Assembly (NCBI GenBank): GCA_963777315.1
Contig: CAVZQC010000004.1
Span: 832,001 to 896,000 of the forward strand
DNA from: Vulcanimicrobiota bacterium
Lineage (GTDB): Bacteria; Vulcanimicrobiota; Vulcanimicrobiia; Vulcanimicrobiales; Vulcanimicrobiaceae
Direction: 5' to 3'
Length of the DNA stretch: 64,000 bases
Part shown: one piece after another, positions 14,037-21,173 of the stretch
Layout: each line of letters opens with the position of its first letter
How positions within the stretch are numbered: the stretch's first letter is position 1
The notes under the pieces: generated by a model
What the model saw: only the letters and a program-made list of their open reading frames with translations
Databases searched by the model: none
Told to the model about the DNA's origin: nothing
Program-made: the position numbers and the translations under genes

Positions 14037-14567
14037 GTGCAGCTGCTTACCTTTGGACACAGCACCCACACCCAAGCTGAACTGGGTGAACTCATACGGC
14101 TTGCCGGGATCGAGAGAGTCGTCGACGTGCGAACGGTCCCGAAAAGCCGCAAGCATCCGTGGGTTTGGAGCACTCGCATGGCAGTCTGGGTGCCGCAGGA
14201 AACCACGGCCGAATACCGCTGGGAAGCCGAACTGGGCGGTTTTCGCAGCCCTCAACCGAGCTCGCACAACACGGCTTTGCGCAATCCGTCGTTCCGAGGA
14301 TATGCCGATTACATGGAAACGGAGCGGTTCTTGAACGCGCTGCAGGGCTTAGTGGATTCGCTTTGCGAACGCCGCTCGGCAATAATGTGCTCTGAAGCGC
14401 TTTGGTGGCGCTGTCACCGCAGACTCATTTCCGACGCTGCGACGTTGCTGCACGCCGTCGAGGTGCGGCACTTGATGGGGAACGGACGAACGCAGGCGCA
14501 CGTGCTTACCCCCGGTGTGCGCCGGCTGGGAAACACCCTGCGTTACGACGGCGATCGAGCCGCATGA
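14037..14567 (+). CDS. DUF488 family protein
   Basis: TFGHS, VDVRTVPKSR, ELGG, FRGYADYM, MCSEALWWRCHR; start could be ATG 14004. Confidence 0.85.
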   Translation: MQLLTFGHSTHTQAELGELIRLAGIERVVDVRTVPKSRKHPWVWSTRMAVWVPQETTAEYRWEAELGGFRSPQPSSHNTALRNPSFRGYADYMETERFLNALQGLVDSLCERRSAIMCSEALWWRCHRRLISDAATLLHAVEVRHLMGNGRTQAHVLTPGVRRLGNTLRYDGDRAA

Positions 14568-15679
14568 ACGCGCCCGTCGAAGCGCTGGTCGACCCCGCTG
14601 CGTCGGCAAAAGCTGCGGGCCTGCGATACGTTACCGACGCGATGCCCGGCATCCGCCGCACGGCCCGTGGAAAGCATTTCGTCTACACGGATGCGAAGGG
14701 CAAGCAAATCCGGGACGACGCCGAGCTCAACCGCATACGCGCGCTGGCCGTGCCGCCTGCGTATACCGACGTATGGATTTGTCCGATTGAAAACGGCCAC
14801 TTACAAGCGACGGGCCGCGACGCGCGCGGCCGCAAGCAATACCGGTATCACAAGCGTTTTCGAGAGATTCGGGACGAGACCAAATACGAGAAGATGATTG
14901 CGTTCGCGCAAGCGCTCCCGGCCATCCGCAAACGAATCGAAGGCGATCTCGCAAAAACCGGGCTGCCGCGCGAAAAAGTTTTGGCAACGGTCGTGCAGCT
15001 GCTCGAAAGCACCGCAATTCGCGTCGGAAACGATGAGTACGCAAGAGACAATAAGTCGTTCGGGCTCACGACCCTGCAGAACAAGCATGCCAAGGTCGAC
15101 GGCTCGACGGTGCGCTTTTCGTTTCGCGGAAAGAGCGGAATCCAGCATGCAATCGACCTGCGCGACCGGCGCCTTGCCAAGATCGTCGGCCAATGCCAGG
15201 ATTTGCCGGGCCAGCAACTCTTCGAGTACGTCGACGACGATGGATCGACCCACGCGATCGATTCTTCGGACGTGAACGACTACATCCGCGAGATTTCGGG
15301 CGACGATTTTTCCGCCAAGGACTTTCGAACGTGGGTCGGCACCGTTGCGTGCGCGATACTGCTTGCCCAAGAGCACGAAGCGCAATCGCAAAACGAGCGC
15401 AAGACTCACGTCGCCGCAGTCATCAAGGACGTCGCCAAGCGCCTGGGCAACACGCCGGCCGTGTGTCGAAAGTGCTACGTGCACCCGGGGCTGCTCGATG
15501 CGTATATGGAAGGCGGCCGGCTCGACATGCAGCGCAAAGTGCGCCATACCGAAGGGCTGCTGCCCGAGGAACAGTTCGTTCTTGCTCTGCTGCACGAGCG
15601 AGCCAGGGAGACCGATTCGTCGCGTACGATGCGCCGCTTGCAGCAATCGCTGCGCAAGCGAAAGAAGAAAGCGGCGTGA
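14564..15679 (+). CDS. bacterial DNA topoisomerase IB
   Basis: VPPAYTDVWI, GRDARGRKQYRYH, IRVGN, FRGKSG, AKDFRTW, LGNTPAVCRKCY (catalytic Tyr). Confidence 0.93.
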   Translation: MNAPVEALVDPAASAKAAGLRYVTDAMPGIRRTARGKHFVYTDAKGKQIRDDAELNRIRALAVPPAYTDVWICPIENGHLQATGRDARGRKQYRYHKRFREIRDETKYEKMIAFAQALPAIRKRIEGDLAKTGLPREKVLATVVQLLESTAIRVGNDEYARDNKSFGLTTLQNKHAKVDGSTVRFSFRGKSGIQHAIDLRDRRLAKIVGQCQDLPGQQLFEYVDDDGSTHAIDSSDVNDYIREISGDDFSAKDFRTWVGTVACAILLAQEHEAQSQNERKTHVAAVIKDVAKRLGNTPAVCRKCYVHPGLLDAYMEGGRLDMQRKVRHTEGLLPEEQFVLALLHERARETDSSRTMRRLQQSLRKRKKKAA

Positions 15680-17109
15680 TCGCCGCTCTTGTTTTAGCCG
15701 CGCTGTTCGCCACAACCCAAACCCACTACGCCGTTGCTACGAGCAGCGCGCAAGCCCAAGCCGATTTCGACCGCGGGCTCACTCTGCTCTACGCGTATAA
15801 CGGCACGCAGGCGCAGCCCGCGTTTACCGGCGCGCTGGACGCCGATCCGCACCTGGCAATGGCGGCCTGGGGTCTTGCGCTAGCCAACGGAACGGATTTG
15901 AACACGGGCTTGGATCCCGTTCGCTTTGCCCGAGCGCAGAGTGCCGCGCAAAAGGCCGCTGGCCTTGCGGCATATGCTACGCCCGAGGAGCGGCTATACA
16001 TCGCGGCCGCCGTGGCGCGTTACGCCGGTACGTACGACCAGCGCGAGTTCGACGAAGCGCGGTACCGTACCGATATGGCGCAACTAGTCGCGCAGTATCC
16101 GCTCGACGATGATGCCGCAATGCTCGACGCCGAAGCGATCATGGAGCACGCCGGAACCTCGGGCATGTGGAACGAGCAAGGCACACAGCCTACGCCGGAC
16201 GGCCAACAGGCACTTTCGCTCATCGAACGCGTACTCGCGCGCGATCCGAACCACATAATGGCCAATCATTTGTGCGTGCACGCGTACGATTATGCCGCCG
16301 ACCGTACCGCGGCGACGGCATGTGCGGACCGACTTGCATCGTGGCGGTTCGATCCGGCGCAGGAACATCTGGCTCATATGCCTGCGCACACGTATGTGGA
16401 AACCGGCCAATACGCCAAAGCGGTGCGCGCGTCGGAATATGCGTGGACTCTGCGCGAGCAATCCGATGCCGAATTGAAATACGGACCGCACGATGCATAT
16501 ACCGGATGGACTGCCGCGCTGATGCTCGGCGATCTCCACGTCGCCGAAGTTTGGGCGGCGCGGACGGGATCGCAATACGGCGGCAGCGACTTGTGGGCGA
16601 CGTGGGCGCGCTTTGGCCAGTGGAATCGCATTTCCGGCTCCCACGCGCAGAATGAATTTTACGCACCGCTCGTGCGCGGATGGACCGACGTGCGCTTCGG
16701 CGTGATGCCGGATGCGAGGAAAATGCTCGCCTTGTACGGCAGCACGGATACCGATTATCGTTGGCTGCTCGAGTCGGTCGTCGACGAAGGGGAAGGCCGA
16801 CTTCAGCCGGCCGTCGCAGCGCTGGCACAGGCCATACGCTACCAGCAACGCGAGGATCGCGCCGAACAGCTGCCCGTGTTTCCCGCGAGCGAGTTGCTGG
16901 GCGCGCTGTATTATCGTCACGCGCTGTACCCGCAAGCAAGTGATGCGTTCGAAGCTGCGCTCGGGCAATATCCGAACGATCCCCGCGCGCTCTACGGTTT
17001 AGCCCTGGCGCAGCGCGCCTTGGGTCAGACCGCGCGTTCCGCCGAAACGCTCAAAACGTTCAGCAGCGTTTGGGATTCGCCCGCACCACCCGATATGCGG
17101 GCTCCCTAA
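15676..17109 (+). CDS. secreted TPR-repeat protein
   Basis: Signal peptide; AQADFDRGL..LYAYN, PNHIMANHLCVH, HLAHMPAHTY, C-terminal TPRs; GTGA overlap. Confidence 0.75.
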   Translation: MIAALVLAALFATTQTHYAVATSSAQAQADFDRGLTLLYAYNGTQAQPAFTGALDADPHLAMAAWGLALANGTDLNTGLDPVRFARAQSAAQKAAGLAAYATPEERLYIAAAVARYAGTYDQREFDEARYRTDMAQLVAQYPLDDDAAMLDAEAIMEHAGTSGMWNEQGTQPTPDGQQALSLIERVLARDPNHIMANHLCVHAYDYAADRTAATACADRLASWRFDPAQEHLAHMPAHTYVETGQYAKAVRASEYAWTLREQSDAELKYGPHDAYTGWTAALMLGDLHVAEVWAARTGSQYGGSDLWATWARFGQWNRISGSHAQNEFYAPLVRGWTDVRFGVMPDARKMLALYGSTDTDYRWLLESVVDEGEGRLQPAVAALAQAIRYQQREDRAEQLPVFPASELLGALYYRHALYPQASDAFEAALGQYPNDPRALYGLALAQRALGQTARSAETLKTFSSVWDSPAPPDMRAP

Positions 17110-17114
17110 CGCGG

Positions 17115-17309
17115 TCATACTTCGCGATTGCGCAGCGCCTGCGCCAGCCCCCCGAGCAGATCGCTCAGCGCTTGCGCGCGGTCCGCTATGTGGCCGCGAA
17201 TACCGCTACTTCGGCCGCTTTCCAGCGTTCGTATCAGCCGGGCGCGAGCAGCGCCGGCATGCAGTTCTTCGCGGCGCCGTTGGATGTCCGCACTGATCCA
17301 GTGCTCCAT
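17115..17309 (-). CDS. 64-aa helical hypothetical protein
   Basis: MEHWISADIQRRREELHAGAARARLIR...; GAGG SD 6 nt before ATG. Confidence 0.65.
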   Translation of the reverse strand: MEHWISADIQRRREELHAGAARARLIRTLESGRSSGIRGHIADRAQALSDLLGGLAQALRNREV

Positions 17310-17341
17310 TGGTCGCCTCTCTTTTAACGAAAGAAGTGTAT

Positions 17342-17374
17342 AAAAAAGCCTCCGTTGCATTTGCGCGGAGGCTT
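17342..17374 (-). terminator. intrinsic terminator inside 5' leader (attenuator)
   Basis: Minus strand AAGCCTCCG-CGCAAATGCAA-CGGAGGCTT-TTTT, 32 nt upstream of ATG 17309. Confidence 0.85.
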
Positions 17375-17399
17375 GGAACGCTACGCCGATCGCCGACGG

Positions 17400-17522
17400 C
17401 TAGGTCGGTCCTCGGCTCACGCAAGCTCCGCAAAATACGGCGTCACTACGAATGACGGTCGGGTCGAACGCCACAGCGAACTGAACGTGCATTCCCTTGC
17501 TCCGCGTTTCAAAAAATTTCAT
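17400..17522 (-). CDS. putative 40-aa leader peptide MKFFETRSKGMHVQFAVAFDPTVIRSDAVFCGACVSRGPT
   Basis: Below the track cutoff; strong SD AAAGGAGTGA 8 nt before ATG; stop 25 nt before the terminator stem. Confidence 0.65.
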   Translation of the reverse strand: MKFFETRSKGMHVQFAVAFDPTVIRSDAVFCGACVSRGPT

Positions 17523-17577
17523 AACTGCCGTCACTCCTTTCTTTATTTGCGCGACGCCTCGTCGAAAAAGTCTCCTC

Positions 17578-17607
17578 ACGATAGCACGCGCCCGCTCGCA
17601 GTGTCAA
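17578..17607 (-). promoter_or_regulatory. sigma70-type promoter for the leader unit
   Basis: TTGACA-N18-TATCGT with extended TG (TGcTATCGT). Confidence 0.7.
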
Positions 17608-17718
17608 ACGGCGTTCCAGCGGCGGTCCAGCATGCGTGCGGCCGCCAATTAACGCGCGTGCCCATCGGGAATCACTTTAGGTAGAGGAATCAATTCGAGA
17701 AGTGAGAGGCTTGGTTCA

Positions 17719-18420
17719 GTGAACAACTCATCGACCATAACGCGACCGCCCGAACAGCAATGGACGCAGGGCGGTCCGGTTAAAACAGTCATTGAAAGCA
17801 CCGAAATTCAGCGCCGTGAGGCAACTTCGGAGGCCAGCATCGGTGAACCCGGCGCCATGGGCCTGTTCGGCTTCTGCGTCGGCACCGTCGTTATTGCTTG
17901 GGTGCTCTCCGGTTGGGCCGCGATGCCCGGGTCGCTCATCGCTGCGGTGCCTGCGCTGCTGGTCTTCGCCGGCGTCGGGCAATTCATCGCCGGCTTGTAC
18001 GCACTATCGCGTACGAACACGTGGTCCGGCACGACGATGTGCGCATACGGTGCGAATAACGTGATCATCGCTGCATTCATATGGATGCAAGCCGGCGGCC
18101 TCATTCCGCGCACTCCGAGCAACATGCTGCTGCTGGCCGTCGATCTATTCTGCATGGGATATATTTCGCTGGCCCTGATGATCGGCGCACTGCGGCTCAA
18201 CGTCACGTACGTGCTTATTACGGCGTGCTTGATCGCCGGCTACACGCTCCCCGGCATTCAGTTCCTGGGCGCGGCCCGCGAACTCGGCATCCTGGGCGGC
18301 TACTTCCTGCTTGCAGCATCGTTCTTTGCGTTCTATGCCGCAACCGCAACGATCGTGAACAGTGCATGGCAACGTGAGGTCGTACCGCTGTTCTCGCTGT
18401 CGCAAAGGCGCCGCGCATAG
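17719..18420 (+). CDS. GPR1/FUN34/YaaH (SatP-like) acetate/ammonia transporter family
   Basis: EPGAMGLFGF (NPAPLGL-like), GVGQFIAG, six TM, AFYAATATIVN. Confidence 0.75.
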   Translation: MNNSSTITRPPEQQWTQGGPVKTVIESTEIQRREATSEASIGEPGAMGLFGFCVGTVVIAWVLSGWAAMPGSLIAAVPALLVFAGVGQFIAGLYALSRTNTWSGTTMCAYGANNVIIAAFIWMQAGGLIPRTPSNMLLLAVDLFCMGYISLALMIGALRLNVTYVLITACLIAGYTLPGIQFLGAARELGILGGYFLLAASFFAFYAATATIVNSAWQREVVPLFSLSQRRRA

Positions 18421-18509: not shown

Positions 18510-18584
18510 GGGCGGTTAGCTCAGTGGGAGAGCGCTTCCTTGACACGGAAGAGGTCAGAAGTTCAATCCTTCTACCGCCCACCA
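18510..18584 (+). tRNA. tRNA-Val(GAC)
   Basis: GGGCGGTTAGCTCAGTGGGAGAGCGCTTCCTTGACACGGAAGAGGTCAGAAGTTCAATCCTTCTACCGCCCACCA; TTGGCG-N16-CATACT promoter-like element upstream. Confidence 0.96.
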
Positions 18585-19208: not shown

Positions 19209-20051
19209 TCACGCCGCGGTTTCCCGCTCATATGCGGCGGGAGAGCGGTAGCCCAGAGCTGAGTGGCGACGATGCCGATTGTACCAGCCCTCGATGAAGT
19301 CGAAGATAGCAAGTTCGGCTTCCTTATGCGTGCGGAACCGGTTCCGATCGAGTAGTTCGCATTCGAGCGTCGCATTGAAGCTCTCGCACATCGCGTTGTC
19401 GTAGCAATCACCAACTGAACCCATCGACGGACGAACTCCAGCTTCCCGGCACCGAGATCCGAAAGCAATCGAGGTGTATTGCGTTCCTTGATCGGAATGA
19501 TGAATGACGCTTTCGGGCCTACGACGTTCAATCGCCATGTTGAGCGCATCGAGTACAAGTTGCGTGCGCATGTTCGAGCTCATTGCATAGCCGACGATTC
19601 GGCGGCTAAACGCGTCGAGAACGACTGCAAGAAACAAGAACCCGGCGTAGGTTGGGATGTACGTGATATCAGCAACCCACAGTTTGTCTGGTGCGTTAGC
19701 GATGAATTTTCGATCGACAAGATCCGGTGCGGGTCGAGCATCTCGATCACGCACGGTCGTCCGAACGCCCTTACGGCGGCTTGCGCCTACGAGATTTCGC
19801 TCGTTCATGAGTCGCGCAAGTCGGTCGTTGCTCAGGGTAATGCCCTCGTCTTTCAACTCGGCCTTGATGCGTGGTCGACCGTACGTGTTGCGAGAGCGTC
19901 GATGAATTGCCTCGATGCGATCACCAAGTTCAATGTCGCGCCGCGCTTGCGCTGACGGTGGACGATTGAGCCACGCATAGTACCCGCTGGCGGAGACCTC
20001 CAGAACCCGGCACATCGTGGAAATGTGGAATTTGGCCTGGTAGCTCTTCAC
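19209..20051 (-). CDS. IS3 transposase OrfB (DDE integrase core)
   Basis: WVADITY, HHSDQGTQY, DNAMCESF, YNRHRRHSALG; in -1 frame to OrfA with GTGA overlap. Confidence 0.95.
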   Translation of the reverse strand: MKSYQAKFHISTMCRVLEVSASGYYAWLNRPPSAQARRDIELGDRIEAIHRRSRNTYGRPRIKAELKDEGITLSNDRLARLMNERNLVGASRRKGVRTTVRDRDARPAPDLVDRKFIANAPDKLWVADITYIPTYAGFLFLAVVLDAFSRRIVGYAMSSNMRTQLVLDALNMAIERRRPESVIHHSDQGTQYTSIAFGSRCREAGVRPSMGSVGDCYDNAMCESFNATLECELLDRNRFRTHKEAELAIFDFIEGWYNRHRRHSALGYRSPAAYERETAA

Positions 20052-20365
20052 GAGTCGGAAGATTTCTTGGGGATCACGTCGGTCTCCCGAGCAAACCAGG
20101 CCGCGGCTTTTGACAAGATTTCATTCTCGATCGTGAGTCGCTTGTTTTCACGTCGAAGTTTCGAGAGTTCTGCTCGTTCTTCGCTGGTCAATCCGTCGGT
20201 GCGCTTGCCAGTATCGAGATCGACCTGCTTTTCCCAATTGCGAATCGTTTGTGGTGCAAGCTCGAATTCGGCGGCCAACTCATCTATGCGGCGACCGGTA
20301 CGCAGCAGTTCAAGAACTTTATGCCGGAAGTCCGGCGGGTAGGAGTGCGGACGCTTTTTGCCCAT
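20048..20365 (-). CDS. IS3 transposase OrfA (HTH)
   Basis: YPPDFR, TIRNW, ELSKLRRENKRL..ENEILSKAAAWF. Confidence 0.93.
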   Translation of the reverse strand: MGKKRPHSYPPDFRHKVLELLRTGRRIDELAAEFELAPQTIRNWEKQVDLDTGKRTDGLTSEERAELSKLRRENKRLTIENEILSKAAAWFARETDVIPKKSSDS

Positions 20366-21173
20366 TGGTGGACCCTTCTCCGCCAAAGCGGAAGTGTCCA
20401 CGAGAGCCGGGCAACTTCACAACGTTCTGTTTCAGATGCTGGTCTATCCGAACTCGAAGGTTATCGGCCTGCCCAATGTAGATTGGCTCGTATGTTTTCC
20501 GCAAACTTTCTGCAAAAAACGTAAATGCCGATTCGTTGCGGTATTCGCTTCTTGGCCTCGTCTGGTACGATATAATACTGAGGAACATCCTTAGGCGCTC
20601 GCGCTAAGTTAACTGGGGTGCGCCAGATGATTTTGATGTCCATAAAACAATCGACTCACCCTTCGTTGGAATGTTTAGTGCATCAACGTATTTGAAGCGT
20701 GAGGCTGTATTCGTTATTTTAAGTTGGTATTCCTCAAGGGAATAGCATTCGGCGCTCGGGACTCCCTCGACGAGCGCGCTCCACGTTCCGCGCCTATGTC
20801 GTGATAGTCGGCCAGCGCAGCGGACTCCGTTGTGAAATATCGCTTCAGCGTAAATCAGCCAGCTAGAGGACAACATTGTCATCAAGTCTGCGAACGCATC
20901 TTGAAGCTCCCCGGCCCGACGATCAACGTGGTAAACACGACCCGAAACTGGCCGGATCCGGGTCGGCCTATTATAATCCGGCGCGAGCGGTTAGCGTCGC
21001 AGATACGATGTTCAATGTGTCGGCAAGATTGGGAATCCTAAACTAGAATTGAGAGCGAGACAATGCGTTTTTTGGGGACGACACGGGCTGAAGGGTTCAC
21101 GCTTCCACCGTAGTGCGGAAACGCAGACGGCGCGGCTATAAAATCTCGCCCGCTGCTTACCGATACCAAATGC

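Follow-up and report, generated by a model that had tools for sequence, protein, structure and literature searches.

On the minus strand of a 64,000-nucleotide stretch of genomic DNA from a member of the Vulcanimicrobiota (hereafter the window, meaning that stretch at its full length), a 40-codon open reading frame (ORF) and an intrinsic terminator precede a gene for a 64-residue protein of no known family, raising the question of whether a ribosome on the short ORF decides if the gene is transcribed and, if so, what that ribosome reports. A first-pass annotation had read the locus as a leader-peptide attenuator, and every element it named was found in its place. At the head of the cassette, all of whose parts lie on the minus strand, is a sigma-70-type promoter (TTGACA-18-TATCGT with an extended −10 TG; 17578..17607), identified by sequence scan and conservation; it is the sole promoter-like site between 16800 and 18000, where 0.2 would be expected from shuffled sequences. 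There follow a strong, purine-rich Shine-Dalgarno (SD) sequence kept in relatives (17534..17542), the leader ORF (17400..17522), whose frame and stop position are conserved and whose peptide is not, the terminator hairpin with its T tract (17342..17374; folding and alignment of relatives), the conserved SD sequence of the small gene (17314..17320), and the small gene itself (17115..17309), recognized from its ORF, profiles, and predicted structure. The terminator hairpin (17374-17346, then six T) folds with −17.0 kcal/mol and was missed by a simple scanner whose loop limit is 8. The small gene has a convergent TPR gene on one side and a divergent GPR1/FUN34/YaaH gene on the other and is therefore a one-gene unit. 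At the Rfam gathering score the leader is uncovered, the only matches in the window being six tRNAs elsewhere, and at an E-value threshold nothing relevant appeared, the one sub-threshold match being to MicL (16 bits versus 56).

Within the window, the leader can pair with the terminator. Apart from one bulge, leader nucleotides 17431-17422 (10 nt) pair with 17375-17365, in a helix that continues in both directions; folding and covariation place the 5′ strand of this antiterminator at 17420..17435 (leader codons ~30-35, which happen to read C-G-A-C) and its 3′ strand at 17360..17380, overlapping the 5′ arm of the terminator. Across 17445-17335 the antiterminator and terminator folds are isoenergetic (−43.7 each). 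Stacked inside the antiterminator helix is a further predicted hairpin, around the leader stop codon (17385..17416), that had gone unseen in the first pass; it folds in 16 of 16 loci, with z ranging from +0.25 to −3.9.

The small gene is widespread in its class. Among 61 related genomes searched at an E value of 0.01, the window protein had a match in 19; a profile built from 16 sequences had matches in 116 of 206 genomes of its own family, weak rows including chance matches. With a broader profile, matches came from 101 of 165 genomes of the own family, from 22 of 32 in a second family of the class, and from 0 of 3 in a third. In 69 genomes of the phylum's other families, the profile of distant members gave no match, nor did a distant member match plasmids or the window protein match phages. 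The near and distant profiles align with one another (hhalign 97%, E = 7e-11). Most genomes carry one copy of the gene, and no second copy of gene or leader was found in the window's own genome. A separate promoter, SD-led 28-codon ORF, and hairpin-T tract were seen in that genome near 220819 (+) of G000:C2.

From the profile matches, a hand-picked subset of loci was parsed. The near set comprised 79 non-duplicate loci, 3 of them false matches, with 60 parsed automatically and 14 by eye; the distant set comprised 36 loci, 1 of them a false match, with 31 parsed automatically and 2 by eye. False matches (L018, L019, L069, and L137) and duplicates (L021, L022, L025, L026, L030, L031, L039, and L145-L148) were dropped before counting, and the counts leave out L087-L113 and most of L151-L162, many of which duplicate earlier loci. 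With the cassette defined as an extended −10 promoter, a start signal, a leader ORF of 22 to 48 codons, the antiterminator/terminator, and the small gene, it is complete in 74 of 76 genuine near loci and 33 of 35 genuine distant loci, that is, in 107 of the 111 genuine loci examined in the class Vulcanimicrobiia (Eremiobacterota). Genomes of three near loci (L009, L010, and L013; 3/74, in alignments A1-A4 and A6 and model R1) and of two of the 30 actinomycete loci discussed below (L176 and L191) carry an unpublished flag; none of the conclusions depends on these loci by themselves, and L009 supplies one of the three CxxC leaders.

Conserved across the loci are the promoter (TTGAC, TG, and TA are invariant in 16/16), the start signal, the open frame, the terminator, and the SD sequence of the gene. 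Among the incomplete loci, L034 has a frameshifted leader that runs into the terminator, and L118 and L120, in the distant set, are second copies (tandem paralogs) without a leader. At L064 the leader and the 5′ part of the gene have been lost beside a tRNA gene, in a manner that suggests integration. L160 likewise has a leaderless second copy downstream of the gene, such copies lying near or adjoining the leader-controlled one. At L059 the leader has no SD sequence and its ATG stands 6 nt past the −10 box, making it leaderless, with frame and stop position kept.

The RNA pairing itself is conserved through compensatory change. In 74 aligned sequences 98.1% of terminator cells are paired; the 9-pair core of the antiterminator is paired in 81.0% of cells (74 aligned leaders), 67 cells having changed on both sides, and the true register beats slid registers. 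Alignment column 127 pairs both with column 49 (CG 47, UA 14) and with column 158 (GC 47, AU 15), so that one shared base covaries with its antiterminator and its terminator partner alike (G with C and C, A with U and U). Leader-terminator duplexes within a locus are stronger than cross pairs between loci (−24.0 versus −19.2 in 16 loci; −24.1 versus −20.7 in 74 loci, with a control segment at −13.6 versus −13.3; −26.6 versus −22.4 in 31 distant loci), and 0 of 500 shuffles gave antiterminator pairing as high, although these permutation and shuffle counts and duplex controls are overstated because the genomes are related. The antiterminator 5′ strand lies within the ORF in 74 of 74 loci, at a median of 34 to 11 nt before the stop. 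A short ORF with a conserved translation start thus stands ahead of an intrinsic terminator in 107/111 loci, and the antiterminator overlaps that ORF, excludes the terminator, and covaries. These comparisons indicate that the attenuator is real, the layout and covarying pairs shared with relatives exceeding chance, and they support the proposal that a ribosome-dependent transcription attenuator gates the 64-residue gene.

If the RNA is conserved, is the peptide? Leader ORFs vary from 22 to 48 codons, while the distance from the stop codon to the terminator 3′ arm is kept at 40 to 62 nt (44 to 51 nt in 71/105), which indicates that the position of the stop is tied to the RNA switch and not to the start. 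Met1 is the only invariant residue among 16 leaders. When close leaders of equal length were compared in 17 disjoint pairs, substitutions numbered 77, 77, and 82 at codon positions 1, 2, and 3 (42 synonymous and 131 non-synonymous codon changes); over target-gene codons 1-30, these pairs give 58, 38, and 112 (75 synonymous and 80 non-synonymous). The leader peptide evolves neutrally, and the target gene is under purifying selection. The locus therefore offers a clean natural case in which the peptide of a leader is neutral, yet its start, frame, and stop position are kept.

The polarity of the switch was modeled on nascent RNA that reached the start of the terminator 3′ arm and was folded after removal of everything 5′ of the leading edge of a ribosome, whose footprint was taken as +16 from the P site. 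Without a ribosome, the antiterminator is the dominant fold in 95 of 105 loci; with a ribosome 16, 14, 12, or at most 6 codons before the stop, it dominates in 91, 63, 26, and 0 of the 105, a fall that is partly built into the model, since the scan removes the 5′ strand by construction. In the window, P for the antiterminator stays at 0.83 until the ribosome is 16 codons from the stop and is 0.28 at 14 and 0.01 at 12. Real leaders reach P > 0.5 in 97/105 cases, versus 296/525 trials for shuffled leaders, whose folds are 11 kcal/mol weaker; the switch was blurred in a simulation that left upstream RNA free to pair across the ribosome. In full-length RNA at equilibrium and with no ribosome, the terminator wins with P of 0.8 or more in 11 of 16 loci, so read-through would need kinetic trapping. 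From the position scan we infer that a fast ribosome would turn the gene off and a late or early-stalled one would turn it on. A pyrBI-like polarity was rejected, since a ribosome on the stop codon leaves ~15 nt between its leading edge and the terminator.

On this model, the consensus promoter and strong SD sequence would load ribosomes onto the leader directly behind RNA polymerase. As long as translation kept up, the antiterminator 5′ strand (~34 to 11 nt before the stop) would be covered by a ribosome during synthesis of the terminator, and transcription would stop ahead of the small gene; when initiation is late, or a ribosome stalls more than ~14 codons before the stop, the antiterminator would form first, and the polymerase would read into the gene, whose protein product would act in trans. 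The commonest residue has a median share of 0.15 of a leader, so that none dominates, and no cluster of cognate codons is present. We favor a general translation-stress attenuator of the whiB7/wblC kind, probably on when no ribosome gets as far as the last ~12 leader codons, a reading that agrees with the "translation stress" listed among the candidate signals in the first pass. If the peptide is a neutral spacer, many insults should count, among them ribosome-targeting antibiotics, uncharged tRNA, and a shortage of ribosomes, and the cell probably makes the small protein when its ribosomes slow down.

The composition of the leaders suggests a more specific signal. In 50 non-redundant leaders, Asn (86 versus 45), Thr (144 versus 99), Met (51 versus 24), and Gly (173 versus 116) exceed the numbers expected from dinucleotide shuffles, His, Arg, Trp, and Asp fall below them, and Thr occurs in 49 and Asn in 44 of the 50; at leader codons 2-14, Asn and Thr each make up 11.7%, versus 3.3% and 5.6% in 189 control gene starts. 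The attenuator might on this basis be tuned to the aspartate-family amino acids Asn, Thr, and Met, the protein then serving nitrogen or amino acid homeostasis, and a whiB7 upstream ORF (uORF) described as tuned to alanine would be a precedent (bioRxiv 10.1101/2023.06.02.543512). We consider such tuning unlikely relative to a general gauge of translation: the window leader has no Asn, cognate codon runs are absent, substitutions are neutral, the co-oriented neighbors scanned include no biosynthetic gene, and the residue bias may instead serve to keep the start region unstructured.

Leaders that appear to be specific for an amino acid do exist in the same class. Weak extra matches of the covariance model were leaderless, amino-acid-rich mini-ORFs with terminators in relatives. 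Those at L213, L215, L222, L223, and L224 each lie ~170 nt ahead of their terminator. Met-rich and Met/Cys-rich mini-ORFs precede Cys/Met PLP enzymes, a Cys run precedes sulfite reductase, and Phe/Tyr-rich and Tyr/Trp-rich ones precede a prephenate dehydratase-DAHP synthase gene (the target of L224 was judged by its likeness to L222). Met/Cys-rich and aromatic mini-ORFs ahead of matching genes suggest that the class uses coupled attenuation, and by their sequences these leaders look different from that of the small gene.

A trigger other than the ribosome was also weighed. The switch might be thrown mainly by temperature or by an RNA-binding protein, for which the Arg-rich product would be a candidate, and the uORF would then act as a modulator: arginine-rich helices can bind RNA, the basic composition of the small protein (median pI 11.1, 17% Arg) resembles such helices, and the two folds are isoenergetic in the window. 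Across 105 otherwise diverging leaders, however, the start signal, the open frame, and the stop-terminator distance are kept, and no conserved loop or unpaired motif that might serve as a binding site was found, nor any Rfam match, which leaves such a trigger only a small chance of being the main one.

The annotation of the window had treated the leader as a nascent-peptide sensor, in which a CxxC motif would bind copper or report Cys supply or redox state and an RGP end would arrest the ribosome, as in CruR or SecM. Both motifs are present in the window leader, and RGPT appears among the motifs listed for uORFs that cluster with ApcA (PMC10987492). Among 105 leaders, however, CxxC occurs in 3 and RGP-x-stop in 2, the two together only in the window leader; a same-genus relative has neither, 22 leaders contain no Cys at all, and RAPP, RAGP, RGPP, and RAPG occur in 0/105. 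The conserved arrest motif of RAPP-type peptides (SecM, ApcA, ApdA, and ApdP) therefore has no counterpart here. A peptide segment two residues from an arrest site would be inside the ribosomal tunnel, and with a CxxC-RGP spacing of 2 residues, not 45, the cysteines of the window leader would sit there. No match to DUF2946 was found, and the terminator is intrinsic. A ribosome held on Cys31, Cys34, or RGP would moreover cover the antiterminator 5′ strand, favoring termination and leaving the gene off. The C-G-A-C codons do pair with the terminator 5′ arm, as proposed, and form the antiterminator 5′ strand. Copper or Cys sensing was accordingly rejected, as was RGP arrest as an on-switch, and with a neutral peptide we regard a nascent-peptide sensor as very improbable. 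Gly-Pro-x-stop does end 16 of 74 near-set leaders, its codons forming the 5′ arm of the stop hairpin; together with the listing of RGPT in the ApcA cluster, it makes a pause at the last codons possible, one that would help termination and not read-through. The case cautions that, in any one leader, CxxC or RGP may arise as a consequence of RNA pairing.

Slighter still is the chance that the terminator merely ends a small RNA or peptide gene and that the 64-residue gene has a promoter of its own: the terminator is strong and often wins at equilibrium, and the paralogs at L118 and L120 do without a leader, but only ~35 nt separate the T tract from the start codon, the search of 16800-18000 gave no second promoter-like site there, the gene begins within ~15 nt of the terminator 3′ arm in three loci (L138, L139, and L148), and the antiterminator covaries. 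In those three loci, the GGAGG of the terminator 3′ arm apparently doubles as the SD sequence, so the switch could control translation too.

As a general gauge of translation, the cassette can be set beside several known systems. Attenuators of the trpL, hisL, and pheL type place a cluster of cognate codons before a biosynthetic operon; ours shares their leader ORF, antiterminator, intrinsic terminator, and coupling to RNA polymerase but has neither cognate cluster nor biosynthetic operon, and its antiterminator strand lies wholly inside the ORF. The closest likeness is to whiB7/wblC, an attenuator on which Lee, Lee and Roe reportedly worked in 2022, as cited by others. There, full translation of the uORF leads to an intrinsic terminator and impaired translation to an antiterminator (bioRxiv 10.1101/2023.06.02.543512; PMC11550727). 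The two systems share a uORF variable in length and sequence (here 22 to 48 codons with neutral substitutions), the choice between intrinsic terminator and antiterminator, a small downstream protein, and a soft amino acid bias. They differ in that our target is not a WhiB-family Fe-S transcription factor (it has no Pfam match, and 75 of 91 members lack Cys) and in that the cassette belongs to a phylum other than the Actinomycetota and has no known regulon or feedback. No WhiB protein was found in the window's own genome, which is 90% complete.

In Pseudomonas aeruginosa PA5471.1-armZ, impaired translation of a leader peptide relieves termination, and the armZ product acts in trans as a protein-protein regulator (PMC12057347). 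Leader-gated termination is common to both systems; the target is unrelated, the phylum is another, and no efflux or repressor gene is linked to our cassette. Because its target differs, the cassette is a member of neither whiB7/wblC nor PA5471.1-armZ. A DUF1127 gene of Sinorhizobium meliloti also encodes a small Arg-rich protein and is induced through a uORF when translation is impaired; its switch is Rho-dependent with an element at the uORF start (PMC12218461), in contrast to the intrinsic terminator and antiterminator found here, and DUF1127 was not among the families matched by 91 near and 26 distant members of our protein family at E values up to 1. CruR has 45 residues between CXXC and RAPP and is Rho-dependent (PMC9426467). 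Only the window leader resembles CruR/DUF2946 and RAPP-type arrest peptides, in having CxxC and an RGP-type end; the motifs are not conserved, RAPP is absent, the terminator is intrinsic, and no copper genes are linked. In the open-licence literature no description of the cassette was found, and supplementary uORF or Term-seq tables could list it.

What, then, does the attenuator control? Family members are 60 to 76 residues long, and the product is predicted to comprise two helices, residues 3-30 and 34-63 (pLDDT 81, pTM 0.38), a basic, Arg-rich one and an amphipathic second one. Conserved positions are Trp4, Arg12, Arg13, Arg24, Arg38, and Arg60, with a stripe of small residues on helix 2. 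Searches of 91 near members against Pfam and NCBIfam and of 26 distant members against Pfam gave only scattered matches in one or two members; searches of the PDB by profile, Foldseek, and VIA-align gave no informative match, the best (Z = 6.9) being to generic helices. In ESM Atlas, the protein falls in a cluster of its own with 367 members from Vulcanimicrobiota, and two unnamed Chloroflexota clusters at 0.88 and 0.87 are leads only; no named cluster was found for a distant member. The gene is mostly stand-alone: its commonest neighbor is a convergent TPR-type gene (58/105 loci), and a same-strand gene of no Pfam family clusters with it in 8 loci. A membrane toxin was rejected, there being no transmembrane stretch (median best 19-residue hydropathy, 0.84). 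Our best guess, a tentative one, is that the protein binds RNA or the ribosome. The search for a tie to the ribosome found none, the match to a uL29 profile being weak (E = 0.29 to 0.36), Foldseek giving no match to the low-pTM model, and the neighbors being mostly convergent. Binding to a regulator or to RNA polymerase is possible, somewhat less so than binding to RNA or the ribosome, and a place at the membrane surface or some other role is possible to the same degree.

Proteins that resemble the family occur in Actinomycetota. A profile that included two actinobacterial-type matches found 27 of 201 Actinomycetota genomes at an E value of 5e-4, and one actinomycete member matched the distant profile (hhalign 94%); given that low-complexity helices are involved, homology judged from these sequences is probable, not certain. 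A scan of genome contigs with one actinobacterial-type look-alike gave one false match, and a metagenome scan with another gave none. No terminator-like hairpin was found within 250 nt upstream in 30 actinomycete loci (0/30), and the divergent neighbors scanned include 7 ABATE/CGNR, 2 WYL-HTH, 1 MarR, and 1 GntR regulators. In L166-L195, the look-alike genes sit directly behind promoters, several of them divergent from such regulators, and some retain the first helix only or are fused to longer ORFs.

The mechanism is of a known kind and conserved throughout the class, and the target family is new. Known general translation-stress attenuators precede genes for translation protection and repair or for resistance (whiB7, armZ, and ABC-F genes). 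A stress-type attenuator kept class-wide before a lone protein of unknown family therefore marks that protein, from a soil phylum that has received little study, as a candidate for a new part in how cells respond to stalled ribosomes, and the 300-nt cassette is directly testable as a reporter. A broader idea, which we find possible but doubtful, is that the small protein founds an undescribed, widespread family of translation-stress effectors, either a ribosome- or RNA-binding factor or a regulator like WhiB7 or ArmZ in another fold, wired to a peptide-neutral gauge of ribosome speed in Vulcanimicrobiia and to ABATE/CGNR, WYL, MarR, and GntR regulators in the Actinomycetota look-alikes. If this were true, the attenuator would be the first functional handle on very common, unannotated genes for Arg-rich two-helix proteins.

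Several features of the surrounding DNA were also noted. In 64 of 105 loci the opposite strand carries a tRNA-Val gene upstream, and a tRNA gene in the window (18510-18581) matches it in place. Just past that gene are two overlapping ORFs (19209-20401, minus strand) that resemble an IS3-type transposase pair. On the other side of the cassette, a gene for a bacterial type IB topoisomerase (14567-15679, plus strand) lies between a DUF488 gene and the TPR gene.
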